Shown here: in pieces, positions 37,870-54,886 of the stretch | Layout: each line of letters begins with the position of its first letter | Numbering within the stretch: position 1 is the stretch's first letter | IMG/VR virus record: IMGVR_UViG_2622736592_000004 | Span: 47,726-111,725 of that record | DNA from: a virus | Lineage: Duplodnaviria > Caudoviricetes | Strand: one strand, 5' to 3' | DNA length: 64,000 nucleotides | Notes under the pieces: model-generated | The model's database searches: none | Told to the model about the DNA's origin: nothing | The model's input: the letters and a program-made list of their open reading frames with translations, nothing else | Made by a program: the position numbers and the translations under genes

Positions 37870-37984
37870 ACCGTACCGTATTCCTTAAGACATTTCCAAG
37901 ACAAGCCGTGAGGGATTGCTGATGAACGTGATGCTGGAGGCGAACCCGTACGAGACTCCTGGTGGAGACCTGTACGATTCGGGC
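37870..37984. promoter_or_regulatory. Divergent promoter/operator, cassette 1
   Basis: Leftward TTGTCT-18-TACGGT with CTTAAG (37884-37889) in the spacer; rightward TACGAT-6nt-GTG. Confidence 0.6.
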
Positions 37985-38170
37985 GTGGCGAAGGTGGAAC
38001 CGATCCAGGTCGAGGAAGCACGCAAGAACCTGGGGAAGTTGCTGGAGCAGGCCGAAGAGTCCGGAACCCACTTCGCCCTGTCCAAGTACGGCAAGACGAA
38101 GGGCTTCTTCGTGCCCACCGCCGACTACCGGCGGTACCGGGAACTCGACGGCGACCCCACCGACCTGTAG
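37985..38170 (+). CDS. Orphan Phd/YefM-fold protein, copy 1 (61 aa)
   Basis: 'IQVEEARKNLGKLLEQA..G....L.KYGK...FFVP' Phd N-terminal pattern. Confidence 0.75.
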   Translation: MAKVEPIQVEEARKNLGKLLEQAEESGTHFALSKYGKTKGFFVPTADYRRYRELDGDPTDL

Positions 38171-38189
38171 CCGGCTCGCAGACCAGTCG

Positions 38190-38220
38190 AGCCCGACGCC
38201 CCCGCAGCGTCGGGCTTTCG
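38190..38220 (+). terminator. Intrinsic terminator after Phd-like copy 1
   Basis: 10-bp stem AGCCCGACGC/GCGTCGGGCT followed by TTCG. Confidence 0.65.
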
Positions 38221-38232
38221 TGCTGCCCCCCA

Positions 38233-38415
38233 TCACCCGACACCCCCACGCCGCTTCACCGCAGTCCGGTTGTGCCAATGACCCGCGCACAGGTACGGCT
38301 CCAACCGGTCGAACTGGTGCCTGCGGTTGCCGACTTTTCCGGCGGCCAACGCGGCGGCGATCCGGTCCGGGTAGCGGATCTTCTTCGGGGTGGGGCACAC
38401 CCGAGGCGCGGACAT
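38233..38415 (-). CDS. Small Zn-finger protein
   Basis: 'CPTPKKIRY...PYLCAGHWH'. Confidence 0.6.
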   Translation of the reverse strand: MSAPRVCPTPKKIRYPDRIAAALAAGKVGNRRHQFDRLEPYLCAGHWHNRTAVKRRGGVG

Positions 38416-38765
38416 CAGCGCATCACCGCCCATCCGGCCACCTCGTAGCCGTCCAACAACGCGCCCATCGAGGTGTCCCGCCACACCCGGTCGGTGGGGC
38501 TGGCAGGCCGCCGGCCATCCCACGTCGTCTCACACACGACCGTCGCCCCGTCGGAGCGTCGGCGTATCTCACCCACCACGGGGGCGGGCAGCAGCCCGTG
38601 GGGGCAACGCGCACACCGGCGGGTTTCGGCGGCGTCCGGGGTGATGCGGCCGGTGGGGACACGCTGACCGGGCCGGTGGCAGGCGAGCACCGTCCACGAC
38701 GCGTCGGTGGTGACGATGAGGTGTTGGGCACCCCAGCCGGTGGCAGTCCACCCGCCGGGGGTCAC
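38415..38765 (-). CDS. Hypothetical protein
   Basis: Coupled ORF. Confidence 0.55.
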   Translation of the reverse strand: MTPGGWTATGWGAQHLIVTTDASWTVLACHRPGQRVPTGRITPDAAETRRCARCPHGLLPAPVVGEIRRRSDGATVVCETTWDGRRPASPTDRVWRDTSMGALLDGYEVAGWAVMR

Positions 38766-41695
38766 GCCGCCACCCGCTCGCAGGTGTTACCGACGCCCAC
38801 CTCGTCGGCGAGAATTTCGGCGAGGGTCGGCAGGCTGGTGCGCTGCCGGCGCGGCGGCGGCAGCCGGTGGCCGACCGCAGCGTGCAGGGCGGCGACCGCT
38901 TCGGCGGTTTCCCGGCGCACCGGCCTGCCCGGCCGGGCAATCTGCAACCAGGCAGTGTTCTTGCCTAGCTCGCGGGCGATCCACGCTTGCGGCCATCCCC
39001 GCCCCACCAGGTCGTTGACGAGGGCGATGGTGGGTGCGGACGGCAGCATGTCCCGCCCGTTCGGGTTGGCGGCGATGTGGTCGCGAACGGCCTGGACAGT
39101 GAGGGCGCGCACGGCCTGGTCGACTTCGCTGGTGATCCGGGACCGTTGACCGTTGCTGATCTCGTCCACGGTCTTCTTGTTGAAACCGGTGATCGCTTGG
39201 ATGGCGGTGCGAGCACGAAGCCCGACCTGCCCTTCCAGCAGTCGCAGATGTCCGCGTGCCGGGCCGGCGTCGACCATGCTGACGCGGGCACCTGCGACTG
39301 CGGTGCAGGGCCCGCACACGCAGCCAGCGGCGTAGCCGAGGCGCGTGCCGTGCTCGCGGACACCCCGGTCGGCGTCGACCCGGACGGCGCGGGGCCGCTC
39401 CCACACCCAGCCGGGCACCGATTCGAGCAGCGCAACCCTGTCAGGGGTGAGCTCGTTGCGGCGGTGCAGGTGACGTTGCCGGGCAGCCCAGTCGCCGATG
39501 TTCGCCGTCCACCCGGACAGGATCTCGGTGCCGTTCTCGGGGATGTCGCAGCCGCCGGTGCGGGCCGCGTACTGGCGGAGGGCGTCCACGTGCAGTTGGA
39601 ATCGGGTGTCGGCGAGCTGCCAGTCGAGGCGGCCGGGAGACGGCTTGTGGGGGGTGACAAGCAGGATGTCGTCGCGTAGGGGCAGTGCGAGACGCCCGGC
39701 GGCGTTGCGGCGGCGCACGGCGGTGACGAACTGGCCGAGGGGCAGCCTGCCCCACATGCGGTCGGCGGGGACGTTGGCGTCGGCGTGCGACTCCACCCAT
39801 TCGGCGAGGGCATCGACCATGCGCTGCTCGCGTTCCGGTACACCGGCGTGCCACGTCCAGCCGGGGATCTGCTCGCACATGTGGGTGTGCCAGTCGGGCA
39901 GGTCGCCGTCGCGGTGCGCCCGACGTTGCTGGGCGCACCACCGGCCCACAGTGAGTGCGTTCTTCCGGCTGCGGTGCGGCAGCAGCATGTTGGCGACGTT
40001 GGGGCTGTTCAGGTCGAAACGGTGCCGCTGGGCGAGGGTGGTGACAGCGGTGTGGTCGCAGAGCCACCATGCGCCGTCGACTGTCCACGCCCATCCGGGT
40101 ACCGCTTCGAGGCGGGCCGCTTGCGTGGTGGACAGGATGCCGGTGGCGTAGGCGCGGCGTTGAATGTGCACCCACCGGCCGAGGTTCTGCCCGCGCGTCT
40201 TCGCCGACCAGGGGACAACCGTGTGGCCGTGGGTGGCGGCCCACGTGGTGAGCTGGGGGAGCATCACCTGCCAAGACTCGTCTTCGGTGGTGTCGTCGGC
40301 GGTGCGGGCGGCGAGCTTCGCCAGGTCGACGCCGGTGAGGTTGAAGTGCAGCAGCCGGGACACGTGGCTGCCGACTTGGTGGGGTTTCTCGCCGCCGGTG
40401 GTGCGCCACGCTCGTAGCTGGTCGAGTTCAGCGGCCATGCGCGGGTCGAGGGACCGCAGGGCCCGCAGAACCGCCCACACGGTGGCGAATTCACTGTCGA
40501 GGAGTTCCTCGTGGTCGGAGCTTCGGGCGGGCACCGTCACCGGCAATATGATCAGGCCTCGGGTTTTGCCGGGTGCCGGTCGGAGGGCGCGGCCGACGGC
40601 TTGCACGATGTCAACGTCGGAGGTGCGGGGGTCGGCGAAGACGACGCCGTCGACTGCGGGCACGTTGACGCCCTCAGCCAAGCAACGGGCGTTGGCGACC
40701 ACGGCAACGGTGTCGGTGTTCGAGTCGGTGAGGGTGTTGAGGGCGGCCCGCCGGGAGGCGGTGGAGTCGACCCCCGCGACGGCGGCGGCGTGGACGGTGC
40801 GCCCATCAGGCAGCGCCAGCCCATGTATGGCGGCGGCGAACTGGCGTGCCCGCGACACCCGCGAGTGGTAGCTGATAACCCGCGACAACCCTTCGCGGGC
40901 GGCAGCGACCAGGGCGGCAGAAGCTTCGGTACCACCGTTGAGGTGTGCACTGGTGTGGCTGCCGTCGATGACGAGCACCCGGTAGTCGACGAGCAGCCCG
41001 GCGGCGATGGCGTCGGCGAGGTTGATGGTGTCGGCGACCGGCCCGAACAACGCCTTGTCGGACATCGACAGCAGTGTTTCGCCGACGTGCCGGGTGCCGG
41101 TGTGTACGGGGGTGGCGGTGACGAACAGGCGTCGTCTCGCCGGCAACTGCTGGTCGTCGAGGGCAACCCGGAACCGGTCGTCGGGTAGCCCGGCGAGCCG
41201 ATGCGCCTCATCGCACACGATCAAGTCGAAGCGGGCCCCTGCACGTCGGGCGGCGTCGGCGACGACCTGGGACGAATGGTAGGTGGAGAACAGCACCTTC
41301 GGCTGGCCGTCCCGGCGGCGCAGGAACGCGGACACCGCATAGTGGTCGGTGGTGACTTTCACACCATGGTCAGACCACCATCCACGGTCGATGCGCCACG
41401 GATCCCCTGTGGTCTGGTCGGAGCAGACAACGAGCGGCGTGAACGGCTGGGGGCTGCCGGTCTGCCATTCGGCGAGGGCTTGCGCGGTGAGGGCCAGCGA
41501 CGGCACGAGAACGAGAGTCAGTTGGGATTGGGTGTCGTCGTGGAGCCACCGGCCGAGGAGTGTTTTGCCGGTGCCGCACGCCCAGTACACCTGGGCGCGG
41601 TCGGTGCGCTGGTAGATGTCGGCGAGGTTGTGTAGCGCGCGGGTCTGGTGGGGGCGACGCCGGGGGAATGTCACCGGCGCGTGTGCGTAGTTCAT
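38762..41695 (-). CDS. SF2 (DEAH) helicase with helicase-associated (HA) repeats and a C-terminal Zn/HTH module
   Basis: 'CGTGKT', 'DEAH', 'TATP', 'QAVGRALR'; repeated 'LGRW..QRR...LE..PGW.W' units. Confidence 0.88.
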   Translation of the reverse strand: MNYAHAPVTFPRRRPHQTRALHNLADIYQRTDRAQVYWACGTGKTLLGRWLHDDTQSQLTLVLVPSLALTAQALAEWQTGSPQPFTPLVVCSDQTTGDPWRIDRGWWSDHGVKVTTDHYAVSAFLRRRDGQPKVLFSTYHSSQVVADAARRAGARFDLIVCDEAHRLAGLPDDRFRVALDDQQLPARRRLFVTATPVHTGTRHVGETLLSMSDKALFGPVADTINLADAIAAGLLVDYRVLVIDGSHTSAHLNGGTEASAALVAAAREGLSRVISYHSRVSRARQFAAAIHGLALPDGRTVHAAAVAGVDSTASRRAALNTLTDSNTDTVAVVANARCLAEGVNVPAVDGVVFADPRTSDVDIVQAVGRALRPAPGKTRGLIILPVTVPARSSDHEELLDSEFATVWAVLRALRSLDPRMAAELDQLRAWRTTGGEKPHQVGSHVSRLLHFNLTGVDLAKLAARTADDTTEDESWQVMLPQLTTWAATHGHTVVPWSAKTRGQNLGRWVHIQRRAYATGILSTTQAARLEAVPGWAWTVDGAWWLCDHTAVTTLAQRHRFDLNSPNVANMLLPHRSRKNALTVGRWCAQQRRAHRDGDLPDWHTHMCEQIPGWTWHAGVPEREQRMVDALAEWVESHADANVPADRMWGRLPLGQFVTAVRRRNAAGRLALPLRDDILLVTPHKPSPGRLDWQLADTRFQLHVDALRQYAARTGGCDIPENGTEILSGWTANIGDWAARQRHLHRRNELTPDRVALLESVPGWVWERPRAVRVDADRGVREHGTRLGYAAGCVCGPCTAVAGARVSMVDAGPARGHLRLLEGQVGLRARTAIQAITGFNKKTVDEISNGQRSRITSEVDQAVRALTVQAVRDHIAANPNGRDMLPSAPTIALVNDLVGRGWPQAWIARELGKNTAWLQIARPGRPVRRETAEAVAALHAAVGHRLPPPRRQRTSLPTLAEILADEVGVGNTCERVAA

Positions 41696-42084
41696 GCCAC
41701 GTCCCCCATGTAGGTGTTCGTGGCTTGCAGCCGGTACTGGTGGGCGGCTTCGATCCGCTCCACTTCGCCTTCGCGGATGAGCATGTCTTGGGCGAGGGCA
41801 TTGGCGAGGCCGTGGGCGTCAACGCTGGCCCCGTCGAGGGCTCGGCTGGTGTTGGTGTCGGAGTTGGTCAACGCGCGGGTGGCTGCCTTCCTGAGGCGGC
41901 GGCCCCGCTGGTGGAGTACGCGTATCCACCGCCGGTCTCGCTCGATCCGGGCGCGTTGGAGTTGGATCCAGCCGGCCAGGTCTTGGTTGGGGTCGCAGCA
42001 TGCGGAGCCGGGGTGGGGCACGCTGGTGGACGCTGCGTCGAACAGGGCCGGCTGGGTGGCGGGTCGAATAGTCATGGCGGTCAC
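41692..42084 (-). CDS. Hypothetical coiled-coil protein
   Basis: SD GGAGG; coupled to the helicase. Confidence 0.6.
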   Translation of the reverse strand: MTAMTIRPATQPALFDAASTSVPHPGSACCDPNQDLAGWIQLQRARIERDRRWIRVLHQRGRRLRKAATRALTNSDTNTSRALDGASVDAHGLANALAQDMLIREGEVERIEAAHQYRLQATNTYMGDVA

Positions 42085-42105
42085 CTCCGTTGGTGCGAGG
42101 GGTGG

Positions 42106-42139
42106 GGGTGCGGTCCGCCGTGGTGGCCGGACCGCACCC
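42106..42139 (-). terminator. Stem-loop
   Basis: 12-bp stem GGGTGCGGTCCG/CGGACCGCACCC. Confidence 0.5.
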
Positions 42140-42149
42140 GTGACAAAAG

Positions 42150-43034
42150 TCAGGCCGCGAGGTCGTAGGTGGGCAGCGGTCGGTGCGCCAGCTCGTTGAC
42201 GTAGCTGCCAGACATGCGCAGGGCGCGTTGGATGGCGGCGAGGGTCATGCCGGCCTGTTGACCTCGGTGTACGGCGTGGTGCCGCTCCAGGCGGGTTAGC
42301 TGCACCAGTTCCCCGTTGAGCGCCATCTCGATGGCCACGTCGTCTACCAAGTCGTCCCGGTCTGCCGGTGTGGACGGCTTAGCACGCGGGTCGTCGATGT
42401 CGTCCCACGCGGCGAGGGAAACCCAGCCCTGCCGGAGGGCGTGGGCGCGGGCGCGGGGGGATGGACCCCACGTGCCGTCGAGGTGCCGGGCGATCACTCG
42501 GATGGAGTGGGCACGTGTCTCGGCAATCATTCGGTGGGTGCCGCTGCGGTAGCGACGCACCGCCTCAGGGATGAGGTCGAGCATGGGGGCGAGGTCGTCG
42601 GAGCTGTAGTGGGCGTAGGCGAGCCCTTGCAGACGCCGCATGGCCCCGACAGCCACTGTCAGCCCGTTGCGCACCGGCGGTGGGACGGGCTTTACGGCCA
42701 GGATCGCGGCGACGGTTTGGGGTTGGCTGTTGAGGGTGACGCCGTTGGCGATCTTGTGGACGGTGGAGAAGGACACTCCGGCCTGCTGGGCGATGGCGCT
42801 GATCGACATGCTGTGTTCGCTGTGCAGGGCGGTGATGTGCTGGCGGGCGGGGGCTGCCGGCACGTGTGCGGGCTGAATCCATCCGTAGGCGGCAGCGTGG
42901 TGGCGGGCGCGGGCTCTGGTGCGGGCGAGGCGTCGGCAGTTGTCGCAGCCTGCGGCGTATTCGCGGTGTTGGGGGCAGCGTTGGGGCATGCTGACTCCGT
43001 CGCGTACCTGCCGAGCGAGGGCGAGCGTGCTCAT
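42150..43034 (-). CDS. Zn-ribbon + multi-HTH DNA-binding protein
   Basis: 'CPQH...CDNC', 'MSISAIAQQAGVSFSTVHKIANG', C-terminal 'MTLAAIQRALRMS'. Confidence 0.7.
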   Translation of the reverse strand: MSTLALARQVRDGVSMPQRCPQHREYAAGCDNCRRLARTRARARHHAAAYGWIQPAHVPAAPARQHITALHSEHSMSISAIAQQAGVSFSTVHKIANGVTLNSQPQTVAAILAVKPVPPPVRNGLTVAVGAMRRLQGLAYAHYSSDDLAPMLDLIPEAVRRYRSGTHRMIAETRAHSIRVIARHLDGTWGPSPRARAHALRQGWVSLAAWDDIDDPRAKPSTPADRDDLVDDVAIEMALNGELVQLTRLERHHAVHRGQQAGMTLAAIQRALRMSGSYVNELAHRPLPTYDLAA

Positions 43035-44170
43035 CGGCTGACCCGGATGGGCATGATGAGGTACCGGTAGCCGGGGACGGGCTGCCCGTCGTTTCCGGCG
43101 GGGGTGATGACGGCCGGCTTGTTGGCGTCCACGAACGCGAAGTGGGCGTCGCGGCTGCCGAGGTGGTTGAGTCCGTCGATCAGGTAGGCGGGGTTGAAGC
43201 CGATGGTGAGCGGGTCGCCGGTGAACGTGGCCTCCATGGCCTCGCTGGCCCGCGCCTCCTCGGTGCCGCCCGCCTCCACCACGAGGCCGTCGCTGCTGAA
43301 GCTGAGCAGCACGGGGGTGGTGCGGTCGGCGACCAGCGCCACCCGCTTGACGACCTCGACGAGCGCGGCGACCGGGACGACTGCGGTGGCGGCGACCGCC
43401 TCCGGCTTGGGGAACAGGCTGCGGACGGGCGGGTAGTTGGCCCCGTCGAGCAGACGGGAGGTGGTGCGGCGGGTGTTCCGCGCGAACCCGATCATCCCTT
43501 CGCCGGCCGTCTCCTGCGCCAGGGCGATCGTTACCTCACCGCCGAGGGGGCCGAGGGCCTTCGCCGTGTCGTGCAGGGTGCGGGCCGGGATGAGGGCGTT
43601 GATGCTGGCGTCCGTGTCGGCCGGCTTCCAGTCCAGTTCGCGGACGGCGAGCCGGTACCGGTCGGTGGCGAGCAGCGCCATCTTGTTCCCCGCGAGTTCC
43701 ATACGGACACCGGTCATCATCGGCAGCGACTCGTCGCGGCCGGCGGCCACAGCAACCTGGGCAACAGCGGTGGCGAACTGGGCGGCGTCCACGGTGCCGG
43801 CCGGTGCGGGCATGGCAGGTAGGGCCGGGTAGTCCTCCACCGGCATCGTCGGGAGGGTGAACCGGGCGGACCCGCAGACCAGTTCGAGGTGCGCGCCGAC
43901 CGTGGCCAGCTCGACCGGCTTGTTTGGTAGCGCCTTCGTGATCTCGGCGAGCAGCCGGGCGGACACGAGGGTGCTGCCCGGGTCGGCGACGGTGCCCCGG
44001 GCGTGTAGCTCGTTGGACACCTCGTAGTCGAAGCTCTTGACGGTGACCCCGTCGTTGGCGGTGGTGAGTAGGACACCGGCCATGACGGGCACCTGCGGAC
44101 GCTGGGGGAGTGCCTTCGCGGCGGTGGTGACGGCCTCGGCGAGGGCGTCACGCTCGGCGGTGATCTTCAT
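43031..44170 (-). CDS. dnaN: DNA polymerase III beta sliding clamp
   Basis: 'SFDYEVS', 'LATDRYRLA', 'IGFNPAYL', 'YLIMPIR'. Confidence 0.95.
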   Translation of the reverse strand: MKITAERDALAEAVTTAAKALPQRPQVPVMAGVLLTTANDGVTVKSFDYEVSNELHARGTVADPGSTLVSARLLAEITKALPNKPVELATVGAHLELVCGSARFTLPTMPVEDYPALPAMPAPAGTVDAAQFATAVAQVAVAAGRDESLPMMTGVRMELAGNKMALLATDRYRLAVRELDWKPADTDASINALIPARTLHDTAKALGPLGGEVTIALAQETAGEGMIGFARNTRRTTSRLLDGANYPPVRSLFPKPEAVAATAVVPVAALVEVVKRVALVADRTTPVLLSFSSDGLVVEAGGTEEARASEAMEATFTGDPLTIGFNPAYLIDGLNHLGSRDAHFAFVDANKPAVITPAGNDGQPVPGYRYLIMPIRVSR

Positions 44171-44442
44171 GCGGCGGCTCCTTCGAGACGGCTGGTGGGG
44201 AAAAGTCGGTGGTGCTCGCGGTTGAGGACTTCGTGCTGGATGACGGGGAAACGGAGCAGGGTTCGCATGACCCGGTCGGCGTCGGCGAGGCGTTCGGTGA
44301 GCCGCTGGTTGTCGGCGAGCACCGCAGCCAGCGACGGCACGGCGGCCGTGTCGCAGACGGGGCAGGTTTGCCCGTGGGCGGCGTGCCGGCGGCGGGCCGA
44401 CTCGGACGGGCACGGCAGCACAGCGTTGGGGTGCAGGCTCAC
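44167..44442 (-). CDS. Zn-finger/coiled-coil hypothetical protein
   Basis: 'C..H...CPVC'; coupled. Confidence 0.55.
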   Translation of the reverse strand: MSLHPNAVLPCPSESARRRHAAHGQTCPVCDTAAVPSLAAVLADNQRLTERLADADRVMRTLLRFPVIQHEVLNREHHRLFPTSRLEGAAA

Positions 44443-45244: not shown

Positions 45245-45450
45245 GGTGGTCCTGTCGGGTTGACGTCCTCCCCGCCCTGAAGAGGCGGGGATTCCCTCCC
45301 TGGCGTCCGCCGCAGCGGATCGCCTTGAGTTGGGTTCCTGTTTCATCGGCCGATGCCTCCTTGAGCGGAGGTCTGACTTAGCCTCCGCAGGCGTTTGCGG
45401 TCTCCGCCCGTCCGACGGCGACCTTGTGTCCTTCGGTTCGGATGTTGCGC
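45240..45450 (-). ncRNA. Predicted TnpB omega/reRNA; guide = flank CCCGACAGGACCACCATGAA
   Basis: Known TnpB architecture: scaffold overlaps the tnpB 3' end and right end, guide from the adjacent flank; 5' boundary approximate. Confidence 0.55.
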
Positions 45451-46535
45451 GCGGCGTTGATGTCGCGGTCGTGCGCCGTCTCGCAGTTGACGCATTTCCA
45501 TTCGCGGATCACGAGGGGCTTGGGGCCGTCCTTGAATCCGCAGGCGGAGCAGAGTTGCGAGGACGGGAAGAACCGGTCCACGCGGGCGAAGGTGCGGCCG
45601 TACCGGGCAGCCTTGTACTCCAACATGCCCACGAACTGGGACCAACCCGCGTCGTGTACGGATTTCGCAAGCCGGGTGCGGGCAAGACCCGACACGCACA
45701 GGTCCTCGACGTACACCGCTTGGTTGTCGCGGATGATCGCCGTGGACAGCTTGTGCTGCCAGTCCCGCCGGGTATCGGCCACCCGCGCATGAGCGCGTGC
45801 AACCTTCACGACGGCCTTCTTGCGGTTGTTCGACCCGCGCTGTTTGCGCGAGAGATCCTGCTGCAACCGGCGCAGCTTGCGGGCGGCCCGCCGTAGGAAC
45901 TTCGGCGCGGCGACCTTCGTGCCGTCGGATAGGACCGCGAAGTGGGTTAGCCCCAGGTCGATGCCGACCTCGGAGCCGACCGGCGGCAACGTCTCGTCCT
46001 CGGCCGTGGCCACCATGAACGACGCGAAGTATCGGCCAGCGGTGTCCTTGACCACAGTCACGGACGATGGGGTCGACGGCAACGCCCGCGACCAGCGCAC
46101 GGAGATTTCCCCGACCTTCGGCAGGCGCAACTTCCCGCCCTTGGTGATGGAGAAACAGTCGGATTTGGTGTACTTGGCGGTCTGCCGGTTGTCCTTTCGC
46201 GACCGGAATCGGGGCGCTCCAACCTTGGGCCCCTTGCGTTTTCCAGACAGTGAGTCGAAGTAGTTCCGATAGGCCGCGTCCAGGTCCCGTAACGCCTGCT
46301 GCATGACACCAACGGGGGCGTTGGATAGCCACGCCCGCTCGGGCGTCTTCTTCGCCTGCGTGATGAGCCGCTTGGACAGGTCCCCGGACTTCGGAAACGG
46401 CTGACCTGAAGCGTGGGCCTCCTCGCGTGCCCGCAGTCCGTCGTTGTACACCGTCCGCGCACACCCGAACGTCCGGGCGAGCGCTGTGCGCTGGCCGGGC
46501 GTCGGGTAGACGCGGAAGTTGTACCGAAGAAGCAT
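45378..46535 (-). CDS. tnpB: RNA-guided endonuclease TnpB
   Basis: 'YNFRVYPT', RuvC 'GIDLG', 'VEDL', 'DRDINAA', Zn 'CSAC...CVNC'; catalytic D-E-D intact. Confidence 0.95.
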   Translation of the reverse strand: MLLRYNFRVYPTPGQRTALARTFGCARTVYNDGLRAREEAHASGQPFPKSGDLSKRLITQAKKTPERAWLSNAPVGVMQQALRDLDAAYRNYFDSLSGKRKGPKVGAPRFRSRKDNRQTAKYTKSDCFSITKGGKLRLPKVGEISVRWSRALPSTPSSVTVVKDTAGRYFASFMVATAEDETLPPVGSEVGIDLGLTHFAVLSDGTKVAAPKFLRRAARKLRRLQQDLSRKQRGSNNRKKAVVKVARAHARVADTRRDWQHKLSTAIIRDNQAVYVEDLCVSGLARTRLAKSVHDAGWSQFVGMLEYKAARYGRTFARVDRFFPSSQLCSACGFKDGPKPLVIREWKCVNCETAHDRDINAARNIRTEGHKVAVGRAETANACGG

Positions 46536-46583
46536 GGTCCCATTGTAGCTCCATTATGGGACCACTGCCAGAATGGGACCATG
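46533..46583. promoter_or_regulatory. Mirror-symmetric divergent leaderless promoters with three ATGGGACCA boxes
   Basis: Perfect IR CATGGTCCCATT/AATGGGACCATG containing both start codons; TACAAT and CAGAAT each 6 nt before ATG. Confidence 0.7.
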
Positions 46584-47339: not shown

Positions 47340-48388
47340 CAGGCACCCACCGCCACACGCTCGGCCGGGAACTCGTCCCAGGTGCGCTCGTCTAGAAGCC
47401 GGCCGGCGCGCTTCTTGCCCATCCGCCACGGCTCGTCCCGGTCCCACGCCCCCGTGCCGTGCGCGATGTCCCAGTCCATGAACGTGCCCTCGGGCATCTG
47501 CGACGGCGGAACGTGGTCGCCCCACTGCTTGAAGAAGAACGCCGTTCCCGACTCCTGGCACTGGTCGCGCAGGTCCCGCACCCAAGCCGGGCTCATCGGC
47601 CGGGCACCCGGGCCGGACTCGCCGCCGGCGATGACCCAGTCGATGCGGGGCAGGTCGGTCAGGCGGTCCCTGTACTCCTCGGCGGGGTTGCCGACAGCCG
47701 GCCACCACTCTCCGGTGAGCGGGTTGTGGACTCCCGCGAATCCCTGCCGGGACGGCGGTGCCCAGTTGGACTGCTCCAGGTCGACGGGGCCGAGCAGGGG
47801 CTCCATCGACAGGAACCGCACGGCGGCCGGGGTGTCGAGCAGCGCGGGGATGCGCCGGTCGGCGGTCGCCTGGTCCTCGACGCTCGTGCCGAGCCACACG
47901 TTCGGCAGCGGCCACGGCGCGGCGGCGATTGCCTGCGCGGTAATCGCGTCCTGCTCGGTCAGCGGCGGGCGTCCCGGAATCACGGAGCCGACGACACGGG
48001 CCATGCGCTCGGGCCGCTTGGTGAGGATCTGGTAGGTGTGCTGCGGGGTAGCGGCCATGACCGCGAAGACGCGAGCGACGAACTCGGCGGGCACCCGGGC
48101 GTGGAACAGGTCCGACATCGAGTTGACGAACACGGTGCGCGGCTTGCGCCACGTCAGCGGCAGCCGCAGCGCGTCGGCGTGGACGGCCACGCCGAAGCCG
48201 GGGCCGGAGGTGCGCGGGTCGCCGTCGGTCTGGTACTTCGCCGAGCCCATCGCCTTGAGGCGCTTGGCGAGGGTGAGGGCGTAGCAGTTGTCGCAGCCGG
48301 CGGAGATCCGGTCGCACCCGGTGGTCGGGTTCCAGGTGACGCCCACCGTGCCTTCGCGGTGGGTCCACTCGATCGAGGTGTCAGCCAT
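47339..48388 (-). CDS. DUF5131 (phage Gp37/Gp68) protein
   Basis: 'TSIEWT', 'GCDRISAGCDNCYA', 'FVNSMSDLFH', 'GGESG', 'FFFKQWG'. Confidence 0.9.
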   Translation of the reverse strand: MADTSIEWTHREGTVGVTWNPTTGCDRISAGCDNCYALTLAKRLKAMGSAKYQTDGDPRTSGPGFGVAVHADALRLPLTWRKPRTVFVNSMSDLFHARVPAEFVARVFAVMAATPQHTYQILTKRPERMARVVGSVIPGRPPLTEQDAITAQAIAAAPWPLPNVWLGTSVEDQATADRRIPALLDTPAAVRFLSMEPLLGPVDLEQSNWAPPSRQGFAGVHNPLTGEWWPAVGNPAEEYRDRLTDLPRIDWVIAGGESGPGARPMSPAWVRDLRDQCQESGTAFFFKQWGDHVPPSQMPEGTFMDWDIAHGTGAWDRDEPWRMGKKRAGRLLDERTWDEFPAERVAVGA

Positions 48389-48590
48389 GGGTGGCCTCCT
48401 GCGTGGTTGGGGTGTGGTTGGTGAGGGTGGTGATCTGGACGGCAACAGCGAGCGCGGCCGACAGGTCCAAGGCGTCCAGCGGGTCGAACCGTCGGCCGTT
48501 GAGGTAGACCCAGCCGTCGGTGACAGTGACGGTGTCCCCGCGCTGGCCGACGAACGGCAGCCGCGAGCGGGTCAGAGTCCGCTCAGCCAC
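48381..48590 (-). CDS. Hypothetical protein
   Basis: Coupled small ORF. Confidence 0.5.
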   Translation of the reverse strand: MAERTLTRSRLPFVGQRGDTVTVTDGWVYLNGRRFDPLDALDLSAALAVAVQITTLTNHTPTTQEATHG

Positions 48591-49095
48591 CGTGCACCGC
48601 CGACAGGTCCGTGATCGTCACCGTCAGGCCGCCGTGCTTCGACTCCAGCCGTCTGGCGGTCAGCGGATCCGCACCAGCGATCACGTCACGCCACAGCGGG
48701 CCGATCGCCAGAGACGTGGACTCCAAGAACTCGGGGGTGTCGTTGGCGATCAACGTCCAACCGGGGGCCGCCGCACCCTTCGGCTTCTTCGCGGTGGGGG
48801 CCTGCACGAACGGCGGCCCGAATGCGTCGATGACGGGCTTGGCGGTGTCGGCGTAGTTGAGGGCGTCCCGGTGGTGGTTGGTTTGGAAGTGGAAGACGAA
48901 GCCGAGGCGGATGCGGGCGAGGTTGCGGGGGAGCCGGTGGAGTTGGGCGGCTTCGTAGCCGGCTTTCCGCCATGCGGCGCGGTTGGCGGAGCTGGCGCGG
49001 GGGCCGTTGCGGTGGGAGTCGTTGGCGCTCCACAGGGCGACGGGGGCGGGGATGAGTAGCGTCCACGTGCGGACGTCGGTCGCGGCGGCGGTCAC
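48583..49095 (-). CDS. RusA-like Holliday junction resolvase
   Basis: 'SAN', 'RDALNY..TAKPVIDA...IANDT'. Confidence 0.65.
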   Translation of the reverse strand: MTAAATDVRTWTLLIPAPVALWSANDSHRNGPRASSANRAAWRKAGYEAAQLHRLPRNLARIRLGFVFHFQTNHHRDALNYADTAKPVIDAFGPPFVQAPTAKKPKGAAAPGWTLIANDTPEFLESTSLAIGPLWRDVIAGADPLTARRLESKHGGLTVTITDLSAVHGG

Positions 49096-49199
49096 CGGTC
49101 CCACCTCTTGTCGTTGGTGTCGACGTACAGCCAGGTGAGGCCGCCGATCACGGCGATAGCAACGACGGCGATGCAGGCGATCGCCTTGAGTGCGGTCAT
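49092..49199 (-). CDS. Single-TM small protein
   Basis: Hydrophobic 35-aa ORF, coupled on both sides. Confidence 0.5.
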   Translation of the reverse strand: MTALKAIACIAVVAIAVIGGLTWLYVDTNDKRWDR

Positions 49200-49444
49200 C
49201 GCGGGCTTCCCCTCAAGATGCGCCGCTGGGCGCGGTTTGGGTGGGTGACGGTGCCCCGCCGGGCCTGCCGGTTCGGCGGCTGCCCGTGGTCGAACCCAGC
49301 GGTGCAGTCGATCGGGCCGTTGTCGTTCCACCCGAGCTGCTTGCGGGTGTCGCAGTGGTGCCCGTCGTGCCCGTTACGGCGGGTGCACTCGGCGAGGGTG
49401 GGGAAGTCCTCGTCGTTGGAGGCGAGGCAGAAGACGGCAGTCAT
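49196..49444 (-). CDS. Hypothetical protein
   Basis: 'C...CTRRNGHDGHH' motif; coupled. Confidence 0.5.
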   Translation of the reverse strand: MTAVFCLASNDEDFPTLAECTRRNGHDGHHCDTRKQLGWNDNGPIDCTAGFDHGQPPNRQARRGTVTHPNRAQRRILRGSPR

Positions 49445-49680
49445 CGGCCCACCACCCGCACCGGCTCGGTGACGGTGATGCGGATGGCCACCCCGTCGTC
49501 GGTGGCGTGCACCGTCGCCCAGTCGGCGGGCAAGGACGTCCCAACCCCAAGGCCGTTCAGGTTCATGTACTCGGCGCGGGCGGCATCCCATGCCGCACCC
49601 AGCTCGCCGACGGCCGATCCGTCGCGGACCTCGTACTGGATGGTGCGGACGGTGGACTCGCTGCGGTCCCAGGCGGCCAT
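49441..49680 (-). CDS. Hypothetical protein
   Basis: Coupled ORF. Confidence 0.55.
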   Translation of the reverse strand: MAAWDRSESTVRTIQYEVRDGSAVGELGAAWDAARAEYMNLNGLGVGTSLPADWATVHATDDGVAIRITVTEPVRVVGR

Positions 49681-50009
49681 CAGGCATTCACCGCCACTGG
49701 TGCAGGCTGTCCGGTCGCGTCGGCGTACGCCTGGGCGAGACTGCGTAGGGCGTTGCGGGCTGCCGCGTTCTGCTCGTACAGACGGTCACGCTGGGCGGCA
49801 ACCTCGGCCACCTCGCCGCCGAGGAACGCAACAAGCCGGGCGGTGTCGGCGTCGTCGAGCACAACCGAGTGGCCGTCGTTGCCGCCGGGCGGGGCGATCC
49901 ACGCCGACAGCTGGCCGTCGTCGGTGCGCTCCACGTTGAGGGTCGACCCGGCCTTGTCGGCGATGGTGAGGGCGGTGAACGCGTCACCGCTCACGAGGTG
50001 GGAGGTCAC
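49680..50009 (-). CDS. Hypothetical protein
   Basis: Coupled ORF. Confidence 0.55.
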   Translation of the reverse strand: MTSHLVSGDAFTALTIADKAGSTLNVERTDDGQLSAWIAPPGGNDGHSVVLDDADTARLVAFLGGEVAEVAAQRDRLYEQNAAARNALRSLAQAYADATGQPAPVAVNA

Positions 50010-50569
50010 GCGGCCACCCCCGCGACCTGCTCGGCGGCCTCCATCGCCTCACGGGCGGCGTAGAACTCCGACAGCTTCCGCGACTCCCACGAGCACCGCT
50101 CCGTGTCGAAACCGCTGTCCGAGGTGCCCGGCTCGGCCGCGTACGACGCCCACAGGGTGCCGTCGTGCTCGAACAGCCTGCACTGGCTGATCGTCCAGCC
50201 GAACTCCCGATCCCGGGGCAGCCAGCACGCGCGGGGAAGCCCGTGCTTCTCCATGGCGTCCCGGACGTCGACCGGCTGGTGGTTGGCCAGCCACTCGCGG
50301 GCACTCTCGCCCGGCTTCCCGCGCCGGGGCTCCAGGTTGCCGCGCACCACCCGCCACCCGTCGGGCACGTGGTCGCCCTGCTGCTCGATCGCGGTCAGTT
50401 GCGTGGGGATGCCGGAGAAACCGGAGGTGCGGACGAACACTCGCGGCCCGGCACCGAGGGCCTTCACGTCGGCGGCGATGCGCTTGCCCATCTCGGCGCG
50501 GTCGGCGACAGCTCTCCGGTAGGCGGCGACGATGGTCGGGTCGCTGGTGGCGTACACGTGCTCGCTCAT
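50006..50569 (-). CDS. Hypothetical protein
   Basis: SD CAGGAGG; coupled. Confidence 0.6.
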   Translation of the reverse strand: MSEHVYATSDPTIVAAYRRAVADRAEMGKRIAADVKALGAGPRVFVRTSGFSGIPTQLTAIEQQGDHVPDGWRVVRGNLEPRRGKPGESAREWLANHQPVDVRDAMEKHGLPRACWLPRDREFGWTISQCRLFEHDGTLWASYAAEPGTSDSGFDTERCSWESRKLSEFYAAREAMEAAEQVAGVAA

Positions 50570-51108
50570 GCGTTGACCTCCTGCTGGTTGGGGGTGTGGT
50601 TGGCGAATGCGCCGTCAGCGGTGATCAGCACCCACCCGTGGACGGCGTGAAGAACAGGAATGAGGGCCGGGTCGTCGGACTGCCGGATCGCCCACCCGAA
50701 CTCGCGGGCCTCCACCCGGAACTGCTCGACGTGCAGGTGGCATCCGGTCGTCGCAGACCCGCACAGAACGATCAAGTTGTGGGGCTGGTTCGTGTCCGGC
50801 CGTGACGTGCCACCGGCACCACGTGCCCGACGGTGCTGGACACTCCAGCCGATGCCACGGGCACCGGTGAGGACGCCCCCGCAGCGCACACACCGGCCGC
50901 CGTCGCGGGCGAACACTGCGGCCACCACGTCGGCGGCGGGGCCGGTGTCACGGGGCCGACGCTTGGGGGCGGGGGCCGCCAGGCGCGGCGACATGCCACG
51001 CCCGACGGTCCCGTTGGTGAGCGTCGAGAACGGGTTGGTGTTGCCCTGCTCGGCGAGCTGCTGCCGGCGCTTCGGGCTCATCGCACGGAGGGGAGTACGG
51101 CGCTCCAT
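50566..51108 (-). CDS. HNH endonuclease
   Basis: 'RDGGRCVRC...QHRR...NLIVLCG....GCH'. Confidence 0.85.
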   Translation of the reverse strand: MERRTPLRAMSPKRRQQLAEQGNTNPFSTLTNGTVGRGMSPRLAAPAPKRRPRDTGPAADVVAAVFARDGGRCVRCGGVLTGARGIGWSVQHRRARGAGGTSRPDTNQPHNLIVLCGSATTGCHLHVEQFRVEAREFGWAIRQSDDPALIPVLHAVHGWVLITADGAFANHTPNQQEVNA

Positions 51109-51455
51109 CAGTGACCCGCAACCGAATACATCGACCGCACCGACGCGTTAACGCTCTGCCAAGCGCGCAACTCCAACTCCAGCGCCTTCGCCTGCCGATC
51201 CGCATACCGGTACGCCACATCGGCGGCGTCACGGACCGCCCGCTGCTCCACCGTCGCCAGCTCGGCCGCATACTTCTTCTCGTGCGCGGGGCCGGCATGG
51301 TCCATGTAGGCGCGGGCGAACGCCTTGTCGTAGGCGGCATCGGCCTTGAGGTATCCGTCGTACCGCTCCGAGCAGACCCGCACCCCGTTGGCGATGCGGT
51401 CCGAGCAGGATCGGATGGCGGCCTCAATGTCGACCGGGTTGAGGACGTCGCTCAC
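51108..51455 (-). CDS. Helical protein of the recombination module
   Basis: Coupled between the Gp3-like and HNH genes. Confidence 0.65.
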   Translation of the reverse strand: MSDVLNPVDIEAAIRSCSDRIANGVRVCSERYDGYLKADAAYDKAFARAYMDHAGPAHEKKYAAELATVEQRAVRDAADVAYRYADRQAKALELELRAWQSVNASVRSMYSVAGH

Positions 51456-52633
51456 TGGATCTGGCCCTTCTCGACCTCGGCGAGGAACGTCTCCATGTCG
51501 AAGCCGTTTATCTCGTCGGACACCTTCTTGAAACGGCTGTAGATGCGCTCCTCAAGGGCCGCCGAGTTCCACTTCCGCTTCCCGGCGGCAGCCTGGATTT
51601 GCACCCACAGGGCGTCCTTGTCCGGCTCGATCTCCACGTCGACCGGCTCGCCGCTGGAATCCGTCGCGGTCACCTTCGGGCCGGCGGCGGACGCCTCCGG
51701 GGCCGGCTGCGGCTTCGCGTCGCCCAACTCCCCGGCGCGCTCCGACAGTGCCTTCTTCGCCGCGCCGGTCAGGACGCCATCCCGGGCGGCGTCCTTCCAA
51801 AGGTCCTGCAACTGGGGGATGGTCTTGACCATGCCGGCCAGCCGCACCACCTCCGCCTCGGTCAGCTTCTCCGGGTCCTGCGGCGTCTCCGGCGCGGCAC
51901 CGATCGCGGCGAGATGCTGCGCGACCATCGCCTGTCGGGCGGCGTGGGCGATCTGCCCGCCGAACGCCTGCGCGGGGGTGACGAACTCGAAGTGCAGCAC
52001 CGGCACCATGAACGTCCGCGACTCGATCTGCTCGTTCTGCGGCCGGTTCGGGTGGAACAGCTTCTTCTCCCGCAACTGCAACTCCAGGCGGGCGGGGATC
52101 GGCTGGGCGGCGGCGGCAATCGACTCGGCGAGCATCGGCAGCTCGGCGGCGGCATTCCAGCCGTGCGACTCCAGCTTCCAAGTGCCCAGCGACGGAACGT
52201 CGGCGAGCATCAGCGACATGCGGGTGGTCGGCTTACACGCCTCGGCCGGCTTCAACTCCCGTCCGGCGGCGCGAGCAGCGGCGCACAGGCACACCTGCTG
52301 GCGGATCCGCTCGGTTTCCCCGTCACACATGCGGCTGCGGAAGCCGTTGCCCCACAGCTCGTAGTTCGGGTCGATCTGCTGTGGCGGCACCAGCACCGGA
52401 ATGTTCTTCGCCTGGGTGACCACCTCAAACTGGGGTCCGGTGTTGTGCTGCCACGGCTTCACCGTCCCCCCGTACAGGGAGGCGACGGCCTCGATGAGGG
52501 TCTGTGAGGGGGAGGTGAAGCGGAGGGTTTCCAGCTTGGCCGGGTAGTTCTTGCCGCGCTGGGAGACGCGCTGCTCGCCGAGGCGGATGACACCAACCTG
52601 GGTGAGGCGACGCTGCAAGGTCTTGATGGGCAT
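51452..52633 (-). CDS. Recombination protein (Gp3/RDF-like, probable annealase)
   Basis: 'LQRRL...G.IRLG...PAKL..RFTS', 'CDGE', 'CKPTTR'; next to the exonuclease. Confidence 0.7.
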   Translation of the reverse strand: MPIKTLQRRLTQVGVIRLGEQRVSQRGKNYPAKLETLRFTSPSQTLIEAVASLYGGTVKPWQHNTGPQFEVVTQAKNIPVLVPPQQIDPNYELWGNGFRSRMCDGETERIRQQVCLCAAARAAGRELKPAEACKPTTRMSLMLADVPSLGTWKLESHGWNAAAELPMLAESIAAAAQPIPARLELQLREKKLFHPNRPQNEQIESRTFMVPVLHFEFVTPAQAFGGQIAHAARQAMVAQHLAAIGAAPETPQDPEKLTEAEVVRLAGMVKTIPQLQDLWKDAARDGVLTGAAKKALSERAGELGDAKPQPAPEASAAGPKVTATDSSGEPVDVEIEPDKDALWVQIQAAAGKRKWNSAALEERIYSRFKKVSDEINGFDMETFLAEVEKGQIQ

Positions 52634-52651
52634 TGGGGTCTCCTCGGAAGA

Positions 52652-53686
52652 TCAGGCGGCGGCGGGGGCCGGCTCGGCGGCGGACTGCTTGGCGGCCTTC
52701 CGCGCGCGGGCGGCAACGGTTTCGGGCAGCACGAACGTGTGCGATGACACGGCAGCCGCACCCTCTTCGATCAGCCACTTCGTGAGGCCGAGCGCGTACA
52801 GGAATCCCCGCCGGTAGGTGCGTTCGGTGGTTACCGCCAGGCGGGGCGTGACCCCGTCGGGGCGAAGCTGAATGAGCATTCCGCCGTCGGTCGGCAGCAT
52901 GGGGTGGTCAACGTCGTCGCCCTTGATCCGGATGACGGGGGCGTGCCGGTAGCCGGTCAACTGCAACGCCTGCTCCGGGTAGAACTTCGGCCCCTCACCC
53001 TCGCGGGTCTTGAAGTCGACCAGCAGATCCACGGTGAGGCCGAGTTTCACGGCGCGCTTGGCCTGTATCTGCGTCACCCGCGACACCAGCTTCGCGGCGG
53101 CCGGGGTGGCGTCGGCCCGGAACCGGATCACCCCATCGGTCGTCCCTGCATACCCGGCACCCTTGTTGATGACGAGAGCTTCGGAGGCGAGGAACGATTC
53201 GGGGGTCAACCCGTACTCGGCGACGAACGCCTCGAACGCCTTCACGTAGGGGGCGATGTCGGCGTCGTAGGGCTTGATCTGGCCGTGGTACGACCACCAT
53301 TCGATGACGTCGTGGGTGCGGGTGCCTTCGTCGGCGCGGCGGGCTGAGTGCTCGATGTGTCGTTCGGACAGCCACCGGGCGATGCACGCTTTGCATTCGC
53401 GGCAGGCGCAGTTGTCGCAGCGGGTGGTGTTGTCGTGGTCGCAGCGGCGGCCGGTGTTCCCGCACGGCTTGGTGCGGGAGGCGATGACGATGGAGGGGAG
53501 TTCGGCGAACACGGCCGCTACGGCCTGGTTCGCGGCGTACCGGAGGAGAGCGTCTTTGGCGATGACGCCGGTGACGGTGGTGCAGGACAGCAGCCGGGCG
53601 TCACCGATGAGGTAGTAGCGCCGGTCGTCGACTTCTTCGACGCCGTGGAAGGTCGGCGAGATGTGCCGATCGGCGATGGTGTTCAT
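52652..53686 (-). CDS. PD-(D/E)XK exonuclease (RecE/Cas4-like) with a Cys-rich insert
   Basis: 'GTRTHD', 'YAGTTD', 'VDFKT', 'ALQL..Y'. Confidence 0.8.
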   Translation of the reverse strand: MNTIADRHISPTFHGVEEVDDRRYYLIGDARLLSCTTVTGVIAKDALLRYAANQAVAAVFAELPSIVIASRTKPCGNTGRRCDHDNTTRCDNCACRECKACIARWLSERHIEHSARRADEGTRTHDVIEWWSYHGQIKPYDADIAPYVKAFEAFVAEYGLTPESFLASEALVINKGAGYAGTTDGVIRFRADATPAAAKLVSRVTQIQAKRAVKLGLTVDLLVDFKTREGEGPKFYPEQALQLTGYRHAPVIRIKGDDVDHPMLPTDGGMLIQLRPDGVTPRLAVTTERTYRRGFLYALGLTKWLIEEGAAAVSSHTFVLPETVAARARKAAKQSAAEPAPAAA

Positions 53687-53880
53687 CAGTGGTCGCACCT
53701 CGCGTCGTCGTCCAGGTAGGCGGTGATGCAGGCGGGCTGCCAGCAGAGGGCGAGTAGCCCTGCCACGGCACGCCCGCAGGTGGGGCACGTGTAGGTGGGT
53801 CCGGGTCCGGGCGGCATGCCCGGCGGGTCACCGAACGGGGGCAGCGGCGGAAGGTCGGGGATGACGACGGGGGCGGTCAC
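53686..53880 (-). CDS. Small Zn-finger protein
   Basis: 'CPTC...CWQPAC'; coupled. Confidence 0.5.
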   Translation of the reverse strand: MTAPVVIPDLPPLPPFGDPPGMPPGPGPTYTCPTCGRAVAGLLALCWQPACITAYLDDDARCDH

Positions 53881-54128
53881 AGGTAACCTCGGTCCGTCTT
53901 CGGCAGCGCCCTGTCGAGGTAGGCGCGCACCGCCGGATGCACCGCCTCGCCAGCGTCGTAGTTGACATCCCCGGCGTCGAAAACGGCCTGCGTCAGGGTG
54001 CCGAGAGACGTGAGGCTGTTGCGGTGCTCGGCAAGCTGGATGCGCAGTGCCTCCAACGCGAGCGGGTTGAACTCGGATCGCAAGGCAGCGACTAGGGCAA
54101 CGTACGAGGGGCTGCTGGCCTGGCTCAT
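53877..54128 (-). CDS. Hypothetical protein
   Basis: Coupled ORF. Confidence 0.55.
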   Translation of the reverse strand: MSQASSPSYVALVAALRSEFNPLALEALRIQLAEHRNSLTSLGTLTQAVFDAGDVNYDAGEAVHPAVRAYLDRALPKTDRGYL

Positions 54129-54331
54129 GCGGCCACCGCCGGACCGTTGGGGCAGGTGCCGCAGTCCGGGCCCGTCGACCCTTCCGGGCCGCAGTACACG
54201 CACAGGGCGTCCAGCTCGGCGGCCCGCTCCGCCTCGTGCTGGGCGTGCGTGTACTGCTCGTACGTCTGCGGGGTGCGCTTGCGGATCGGGACGACGGTCG
54301 CCGTGGACGGCTCACCCAGGACGGCGGTCAC
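54125..54331 (-). CDS. Small Zn-finger protein
   Basis: 'CVYC...CGTC'; coupled. Confidence 0.55.
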   Translation of the reverse strand: MTAVLGEPSTATVVPIRKRTPQTYEQYTHAQHEAERAAELDALCVYCGPEGSTGPDCGTCPNGPAVAA

Positions 54332-54513
54332 TTCGCCACCTCGTACTTCTTCCAGAAGTTCTCCAGCCGCACGTGGGTCAGCCGGGAGCCCTTGGCGAGC
54401 GCCTTGAGGGTCACGCTGTCGATGCCGGACGGGCCGGTGCTGCCGAAAACCAGCACCTCGGCTCCGTCGCTGATGCGCCGGTAGCTACCCGGTTCGGGGC
54501 GTAGGTAGGACAT
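54328..54513 (-). CDS. Hypothetical protein, first gene after the cassette-2 leftward promoter
   Basis: 61-aa ORF with SD GGAG. Confidence 0.6.
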   Translation of the reverse strand: MSYLRPEPGSYRRISDGAEVLVFGSTGPSGIDSVTLKALAKGSRLTHVRLENFWKKYEVAK

Positions 54514-54584
54514 GCGTCATCGACTCCAGAGGTAGGAGGAGGTTTGCGGGTTCTGGCGGGCTGATTGCCTCTGCCTATGCCCAC

Positions 54585-54700
54585 AGTCTACCCTGAACCT
54601 TAAGGTTGGGCTAGTGGTTGAGCTTAAGGAGTGGCCCGTGTTTGTAACCGCAGCAGCCGAACAGCACGGCGAACCACACGCCGGCCTGTACGATCCCGGC
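54585..54700. promoter_or_regulatory. Divergent promoter/operator, cassette 2
   Basis: Leftward -10 TAGACT (54590-54585); palindrome AACCTTAAGGTT (54596-54607); second CTTAAG (54623-54628); rightward TACGAT-6nt-GTG. Confidence 0.6.
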
Positions 54701-54886
54701 GTGGCGAAGACGGAACGGATCGGTGTCGAGGCCGCCCGCAAGGTGCTCGGGCAGCAGCTCGACAAGGGCAAGGCCGATGGGCTCCACACGATCATCGCCA
54801 AGCGCGGCGCAGACCAAGGGGTGCTAGTCCCGATGGACTGGTATCGCCGAGCTCGTGAAGCCCTCGGTGATCCCACCGACCTGTAG
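54701..54886 (+). CDS. Orphan Phd/YefM-fold protein, copy 2 (61 aa)
   Basis: 'IGVEAARKVLGQQLD...HTIIAKRG...VLVP'; 31/61 identical to copy 1 without gaps. Confidence 0.75.
   Translation: MAKTERIGVEAARKVLGQQLDKGKADGLHTIIAKRGADQGVLVPMDWYRRAREALGDPTDL

Follow-up and report, generated by a model that had tools for sequence, protein, structure and literature searches.

We show that two small plus-strand genes, hereafter copies A and B, in a 64,000-nucleotide stretch of a Caudoviricetes genome (the window; positions 47,726 to 111,725 of IMG/VR record IMGVR_UViG_2622736592_000004) belong to a family of toxin-less Phd/YefM-type proteins that combine an antitoxin N-terminal fold, a missing toxin-binding tail and a dedicated upstream control region, an architecture conserved in 19 loci. 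We propose that each locus forms a self-contained cassette around a C-terminally truncated DNA-binding domain, and that the encoded protein would act as a local, autoregulated, antitoxin-derived repressor on a shared bidirectional control region, gating the adjacent leftward operon, with an internal promoter (P2) providing basal expression. We give this proposal about an even chance of being correct; DNA binding, repression of the leftward blocks, use of both starts and the independence of the two gates are predicted from sequence.

A sequence-only reading of the window had singled out the two genes as twins, and this description held. Translation of the 186-nt open reading frames (ORFs) at 37985-38170 and 54701-54886 gives 61 residues ending in GDPTDL in both cases, the two short forms align without gaps at 31/61 identities (E 2e-19), and the 25-nt signal shared by both copies, CCTGTACGAT-NNN-GGCGTGGCGAAG, is found at exactly two sites in the window, 37969 and 54685, and at none in shuffled sequences. 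CTTAAG lies at 37884 and 54599, 101 and 102 nt 5′ of the respective GTG codons, as had been noted; all three of its occurrences in 64 kb fall within the leaders of the two copies. The gene array is almost wholly minus-strand according to a gene caller with a codon model self-trained on the window's own long ORFs, and copies A and B are two of the three plus-strand genes it calls, the third being 60902-61402. That earlier reading overlooked a conserved upstream promoter (P1), a Shine-Dalgarno site and an 82-aa isoform; the long forms are identical at 39 of 82 positions, again without gaps. No further family copies occur in the 7.9 Mb genome. We considered a recent duplication within the phage and rejected it: copies A and B share 48% identity, and the nearest genes to each are found in other phages, which makes the pair either old or a product of mosaicism.

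The proposed Phd/YefM fold is supported by profile matches and a confident AlphaFold model. Copies A and B score 24.8 and 16.4 bits against PF02604, where the Pfam gathering cut-off is 29.8 bits, and 43 of 50 family members match this profile at E < 0.01 (best 1.6e-10). The strongest matches of the family profile in the Protein Data Bank (PDB) are antitoxins of the Phd/YefM/RelB class, with E 9e-6 for Phd/RelB chains. An AlphaFold (AF2) model from a 50-sequence alignment, which superseded an earlier one from six sequences (predicted local distance difference test, pLDDT, 47.6), reached a pLDDT of 82.5; its beta-alpha-alpha-beta-beta-alpha core, residues 25-75, exceeds 90, and residues 1-22 are disordered. 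All top Foldseek matches in the PDB are N-terminal domains of Phd, YefM or RelB (Mycobacterium tuberculosis), with template modeling (TM) scores up to 0.85 and root-mean-square deviations of 1.4-2.2 Å. The sole invariant column of the 50-sequence alignment is R34, part of an EAR motif, which aligns with R10 of RelB1 (9g12_C) and with position 10 of the profile. In YefM, Arg10 makes base-specific operator contacts, and the R10A substitution lowered or abolished DNA binding (PMC7544224). The cassette proteins thus resemble Phd of phage P1 and the YefM antitoxins (PF02604) in their N-terminal dimeric DNA-binding fold and in the arginine of helix 1.

The resemblance ends at the C-terminus. The chain stops 8 residues past helix 3, where canonical relatives run for about 35 residues more, and the toxin-binding C-terminal region is therefore missing, which renders unlikely the suggestion that these proteins are decoy antitoxins. 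The remaining tail, (G)(D/E)PT(D/E)x, is conserved. Several relatives extend beyond it with Pro-rich sequence, which argues against a strictly C-terminal degradation tag and leaves the idea that GDPTDL serves as a degradation or partner tag doubtful.

The absence of an adjacent toxin gene, observed initially for the two copies, is a family trait: the gene stands alone on the opposite strand in 15/15 strong loci and in 4/4 fresh lineages. A co-oriented neighbor is lacking in 18 of the 19 loci; in the exception, L045, an unrelated co-oriented ORF (1042-1245, plus strand) begins 64 nt downstream of the Phd-like gene and is cut by the contig end. Canonical distant relatives from the same order have a long C-terminal tail and usually a downstream gene of about 87 aa in the toxin position, overlapping by 4 nt. 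Could the cassettes nevertheless be real toxin-antitoxin (TA) pairs, with the toxin encoded elsewhere in the element or by the small divergent ORFs, of 66 aa (37523-37723, minus strand) beside copy A and of 61 aa (54328-54513, minus strand) beside copy B? Such uncharacterized ORFs do adjoin both copies, and one of 19 loci, L045, offers a co-oriented candidate. However, neither divergent ORF has a homolog at any other cassette locus or a match in Pfam, PHROGs, NCBIfam or PADLOC (PADLOC returned zero matches among ten proteins tested), the region with which the antitoxin would hold its toxin is gone, and weak outgroup matches display the true canonical pair layout with its 4-nt overlap. Toxin-like matches are also missing among the cassette neighbors. 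We consider a hidden toxin very improbable.

Both genes are predicted to contain two nested starts. The long form of copy A is an 82-aa ORF at 37922-38170 (plus strand), which opens with ATG behind the Shine-Dalgarno site GAGGGA (37910-37915); the predicted short, leaderless form of 61 aa (37985-38170) opens with GTG behind an internal -10 hexamer, TACGAT, which lies at 37973-37978 in codons 18-19 (P2-A). Copy B has the same organization, with an 82-aa ORF from GTG at 54638-54886 (plus strand; Shine-Dalgarno site AAGGAG, 54626-54631), a predicted leaderless 61-aa form from GTG at 54701-54886 and TACGAT at 54689-54694 (P2-B). Both hexamers are conserved in family loci. The upstream starts, each with its Shine-Dalgarno site 6 nt ahead, were chosen independently by the self-trained gene caller, and in two very large protein collections most relatives are 82 aa long and align over their full length. 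Public records are inconsistent in this respect, with 61-aa and 82-aa versions both deposited. Retention of the long form is further indicated by N-terminal indels that are all multiples of three, by long-form N-termini that are alike across loci (MTIxT...) and by a functional-looking Shine-Dalgarno site 5′ of the long-form start in every locus.

The internal signal is kept as well. The motif TAnnnT-N6-[A/G]TG is present in 19/19 loci, comprising the first 15 and four fresh lineages, so that at sequence level all of them have the layout of a leaderless gene, with TAnnnT about 6-7 nt before ATG or GTG. In the first 15 loci the internal hexamer is TAC-GAT in 13 and TAC-ACT or TAC-TCT in the others, always fitting TAnnnT. 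Moreover, the Asp codon in the hexamer is the rare GAT in 17/17 loci (13/13 in the first 15), compared with about 12% GAT among Asp codons of the window, and synonymous sites beside the signal vary freely across loci. The synonymous T therefore appears to be under selection, in agreement with the earlier claim of a TACGAT -10 element and a leaderless GTG. An explanation of TACGAT and GTG as mere coding sequence for a conserved LYDxGV peptide was overturned by this codon analysis.

Comparison with canonical relatives suggests where this signal came from. Among 20 canonical antitoxin genes from the same order, 17 have a similar leaderless-type signal, with TAnnnT (mostly TGTACGAT or TGTACAAT) 6-7 nt 5′ of an annotated-type ATG, and these genes start at about the point of the GTG in copy A. 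In actinobacteria, TANNNT is the dominant promoter element and TA modules are mostly leaderless (PMC3898074), and the TAnnnT-N6-ATG/GTG start of the cassettes resembles that of actinobacterial Phd/YefM members. Because the same layout is found in canonical relatives and conserved in the family, we infer that P2 is the ancestral leaderless antitoxin promoter and start, now selected within a longer ORF. We also observed that the -10 hexamer of the canonical set (L024-L043) holds a GTAC operator core 6 nt 5′ of the ATG, and that a second GTAC often overlaps the start-codon region, fusing promoter, operator and leaderless start in about 20 bp. Derivation from canonical leaderless Phd/YefM antitoxin genes, with loss of toxin and C-terminal domain, is also what decaying TA-module remnants without present function would display. 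Nevertheless, the family has been preserved in at least 19 loci, with 27 representative clusters at E <= 1e-10, its reading frames are intact with N-terminal indels in multiples of three, a synonymous site is under selection, and it has acquired and kept a promoter, a leader and a Shine-Dalgarno site. Decay is, in our view, extremely improbable.

The gained promoter, P1, lies directly upstream. P1-A comprises TTGACC (37851-37856), a 17-nt spacer and TACCGT (37874-37879), and P1-B comprises TTGCCT (54565-54570), an 18-nt spacer and TACCCT (54589-54594); both are conserved promoter candidates on the plus strand, at 37851-37879 and 54565-54594. In copy A, the leader between P1 and the long-form start measures 42 nt. 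Across the family, TTGnnn-17/18-TAnnnT is nearly fixed at 41-43 nt from the start codon and is the single match in 14 of the first 15 loci. When the control regions of these 15 loci were aligned on the first base of the -10 element, the invariant columns were A at -4, TA at 0/1, A at +13 and A at +24, and T at +5 and T at +35 were nearly invariant. Columns +13, +24 and +35 form an exact 11-bp series. In the four loci outside the initial sample, promoter and spacing recurred, as did columns +13 and +35, and three of four also have A at -4 and A at +24.

This series reflects three repeats, phased at 11 bp, that begin directly after the P1 -10 element, the first of which is a palindrome on a CTTAAG core. 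In copy A (37884-37903, plus strand) the operator-like repeats are the CTTAAG core with TTAAGACA (37885-37892) and CCAAGACA (37896-37903), 11 nt apart. In copy B (54596-54631, plus strand) they are the perfect 12-bp palindrome AACCTTAAGGTT (54596-54607), CTAGTGGTT (54611-54619) and CTTAAGGAG (54623-54631), the last overlapping the Shine-Dalgarno site. The arms of the first-unit palindrome differ between loci and yet remain symmetric: TTCCTTAAGGAA in three loci, TCTTAAGA in L006, and TCCTTAGGA or TCCTAAGGA in three loci. In 9/15 loci, versus 13% of background windows, the arms measure 4 bp or more, a figure that overstates the support given that the loci are related. Phd/YefM operators consist of paired palindromes 12-13 bp apart that span the -10 element and its flanks (PMC1802561), and by analogy the position and spacing of the cassette repeats match where Phd/YefM dimers bind their own operators. 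The cassettes are like Phd/YefM loci in having operator-like palindromes or repeats spaced 11-12 bp just after the -10 element, and differ from them in that these repeats are centered on CTTAAG-type words rather than GTAC. GTAC cores were considered as the operator and rejected: they occur in P2 of most loci and in P1 of some, are absent from P1-B, and are not family-wide, being absent at both promoters in the L010/L020/L008 clade.

In five loci (L011, L009, L003, L004 and L007), codons 9-14 also contain operator-like words paired 11-12 nt apart, at -24/-12 relative to the internal -10 element; in L011 these words, GTGACAGAA and CGCACAGAA, mirror the two post-P1 units. The word pairs coincide with a run of rare A/T-ending codons. 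An a priori test for a second operator set upstream of P2 returned 8 matches versus 3.0 expected (P ~0.02), all at -24/-23/-12, from only 5/15 loci and none from copies A or B. We regard a second operator set as a tentative prediction.

The control region of copy A also contains a candidate promoter in the opposite direction. The leftward candidate (37875-37904, minus strand) matches the consensus as TTGTCT, an 18-nt spacer and TACGGT; its -10 element overlaps that of P1, and CTTAAG lies inside its spacer. The pattern TTGnCn-17/18-TAnnnT has just three matches on both strands of the 64 kb, namely P1-A, P1-B and this leftward promoter. The earlier proposal that CTTAAG lies in the spacer of a leftward promoter is supported for copy A and weak for copy B, where the leftward -10 is TAGACT and there is no convincing -35. 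The foremost role of CTTAAG seems rather to be the center of the palindrome that opens the phased repeats after the rightward -10 element. On the opposite strand, the invariant A at -4 may equally represent the final T of a leftward -10 element, and the invariant A at +24 the initial T of a leftward -35 element. Overlapping -10 elements on both strands give bidirectional promoters at preferred spacings (Warman et al., bioRxiv 10.1101/2020.01.31.928960). All of the first 15 loci show the top-strand pattern A-nnn-TA-nnn-T, and 9/15 have TAnnnTA, so that each strand has a -10 hexamer at one of the spacings described as preferred. By this symmetric overlapping -10 pattern in their sequence the cassettes are candidate bidirectional promoters; they are unlike those of Warman et al. 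in that the shared region also carries operator-like repeats.

Collectively, these features suggest how the cassettes could operate. A housekeeping-type P1 with its leader, Shine-Dalgarno site and ATG/GTG start would yield the 82-aa form with its disordered N-terminal extension, and the ancestral leaderless P2, now within codons 18-19, would yield the 61-aa core domain and supply basal protein. The ~30 bp that carry the phased repeats would also contain a leftward promoter, from its -10 through the spacer to its -35, at the head of the neighboring minus-strand block. By binding the phased repeats, the protein would shut both its own P1 and the leftward operon. Below copy A, the 66-aa ORF opens a leftward block that continues to DnaB (34256-35626, minus strand); below copy B, the 61-aa ORF opens one that continues to an exonuclease (52652-53686, minus strand) and then to a protein of the Gp3-like recombination directionality factor (RDF) family (51452-52633, minus strand; PF18897, E 1.4e-39). 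Copy A may thus gate the replication block and copy B the exonuclease/RDF-like recombination block, and independence of the two gates would follow from their differing repeat words (AAGACA in A and AAGGTT in B).

Several points weigh against this model. In copy A the palindrome is limited to the six base pairs of CTTAAG, a convincing leftward -35 is missing from copy B, and both window proteins fall under the Pfam gathering threshold. The prophage has no further occurrence of the repeat words, which confines any regulon to the cassettes and their surroundings, and a purely self-regulating gene would look alike. The prophage also has a conventional helix-turn-helix (HTH) repressor candidate beside its integrase. 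A promoter/terminator scan with Escherichia coli consensus sequences was empty at both loci, a result that is uninformative for actinobacterial promoters, since TACCGT matches TATAAT at 3/6 positions only. Moreover, the loci are related, so that conservation statistics overstate their independence, and the model leaves the conserved tail and the N-terminal extension without explanation. These last two elements have a place in a variant in which the ratio of isoforms has replaced the toxin:antitoxin ratio of a domesticated antitoxin: the 82-aa form from autoregulated P1 and the 61-aa form from P2 would tune cooperative binding to the three phased units, and the N-terminal extension or the tail would take the bridging or co-repressor role of Doc/YoeB. 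We put little weight on this variant, which is improbable as it stands; if it were true, the two sequence-orthogonal copies would be independent modular gates on the recombination and replication operons.

Conserved as they are, the tail and the extension suggest a protein partner, and a different possibility is that the gene is self-regulated cargo acting in trans outside the cassette, as an anti-defense factor, a poison of host Phd/YefM antitoxin dimers or a means of superinfection exclusion, its position and orientation being incidental, as in a moron with its own promoter. It has a strong housekeeping-type promoter of its own and, in copy A, a hairpin of its own, the host carries two canonical PF02604 genes elsewhere, and orphan antitoxins have been regarded as possible anti-addiction modules (PMC7354431). 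Like such orphan (solitary) antitoxins, the cassettes place an antitoxin homolog on a mobile element with no adjacent toxin. However, most orphan antitoxins on record are viewed as anti-addiction modules or as degraded TA loci, with the toxin-binding part retained, and in the cassettes this part is missing; the canonical toxin-neutralizing region is absent, and there is no PADLOC or other defense-related match. The divergent orientation is kept in 19/19 loci despite differing neighbors, the invariant bases fit a leftward promoter that shares the control region, and, unlike in orphan antitoxins, a regulatory role is suggested by a control region of the gene's own and by its genomic position, both of them conserved. 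On balance we find a trans-acting cargo gene unlikely.

The arrangement at the 3′ ends raises the possibility that rightward transcription itself matters rather than the protein, with convergent transcription from P1 and P2 colliding with or occluding leftward transcription through the cassette and in this way insulating successive minus-strand operons from each other. Copy A is followed by a candidate terminator on the plus strand (38189-38217), a GC-rich hairpin of 10-11 bp with a U-containing tail (z = -2.35); copy B lacks such a structure. Its stop codon lies 4 nt from the end of a convergent ORF, and several homolog loci are similar (0-6 nt), with no terminator between the genes, so that convergent transcription appears to be built into the design. 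This ORF (54891-55163, minus strand, 90 aa), not called by the self-trained gene caller, may encode a small zinc-binding protein, given its Cys/His pairs (CGVHGW ... CPAC). The cassette gene is always antisense to a unidirectional block, and P1-A and P1-B account for all but one of the three consensus-like promoter matches in 64 kb. An effect of transcription alone does not account for the clear purifying selection on the protein, with its fold and DNA-reading arginine conserved, nor for palindromic 11-bp-phased repeats that point to a bound protein. We therefore judge it quite unlikely as a full explanation; it is compatible with the repressor model and may add to it rather than replace it.

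The setting of the cassettes is a prophage, as judged from its gene array (integrase, repressor-like gene, exonuclease, RDF-family protein, DnaB and others). The window has 69% G+C and is located on contig 12 of the genome. The small proteins have relatives in records of Micromonospora and Paractinoplanes, and the host is therefore probably a member of the Micromonosporaceae. From right to left, the array begins with a tyrosine integrase (61399-62748, minus strand), which matched tyrosine-type integrase PHROGs. Its end is overlapped by the plus-strand gene 60902-61402, an HTH repressor-like gene (phrog_6288, phrog_2838) and the conventional immunity-repressor candidate of the prophage. An Ant-like anti-repressor gene lies between this gene and the exonuclease. 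Gp3-type RDFs are known as partners of serine integrases; here, a Gp3-like RDF co-occurs with a tyrosine-type integrase in the same prophage. A TnpB-type gene (45378-46535, minus strand; phrog_506, E 5e-122) is inserted among the early genes, and its close homologs (61-68% identity) adjoin weak Phd-like matches in L012 and L015. A beta-clamp gene and an SNF2/HA helicase gene follow between TnpB and DnaB, and a long ORF at 4642-8871 (minus strand) is read as the tape-measure gene by size only. Rfam gave zero matches in the window.

The family is small. Among 1.84 billion proteins it forms 27 representative clusters at E <= 1e-10, and it occurs in 12 of 400 sampled genomes of the same taxonomic family. 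In a tblastn search of deposited phages neither protein was matched, and the family is absent from the cultured-phage records covered there. Immediate neighbors are not conserved across the 19 loci. Related elements also hold DnaB, the exonuclease, the Gp3-like gene and others, and in L003, L020 and L021 a single cassette lies just upstream of the DnaB block, like copy A. Two strong copies were found in no other genome searched.

Compared with Phd/YefM loci, the cassettes lack a toxin gene, have an 8-residue tail in place of the toxin-binding region, and add an upstream promoter, a leader, a Shine-Dalgarno site and a 21-codon N-terminal extension that reads through the old promoter; furthermore, their genes invariably stand singly and run against the phage operons around them. 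There are also parallels with the cI switch of phage lambda, in which cI is part of a PRM/PR divergent switch and its mRNA is leaderless when transcribed from PRM and leadered from PRE. As in lambda, a small gene, here for a putative repressor, lies divergent from lytic genes with operators, here operator-like repeats, in a shared control region, and each gene is predicted to have one leaderless and one leadered transcript. Unlike cI, the cassette protein has an unrelated fold, its two transcripts would yield different protein isoforms, and two internal, operon-level copies exist besides a conventional repressor candidate.

If our model is correct, the cassettes would provide a clear example from nature of a phage regulator that arose from the DNA-binding domain of an antitoxin and acts on its own, with evolutionary steps that can be read in the sequence: loss of the toxin, loss of the tail, retention of the leaderless promoter inside an extended frame, and gain of a new promoter and leader. 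They would also show in detail how a promoter can be preserved by way of a synonymous codon position, a situation that gene callers handle inconsistently. Finally, the parts are small (61-82 aa plus ~75 bp of control DNA) and apparently sequence-orthogonal, and could serve the genetics of high-GC actinomycetes.

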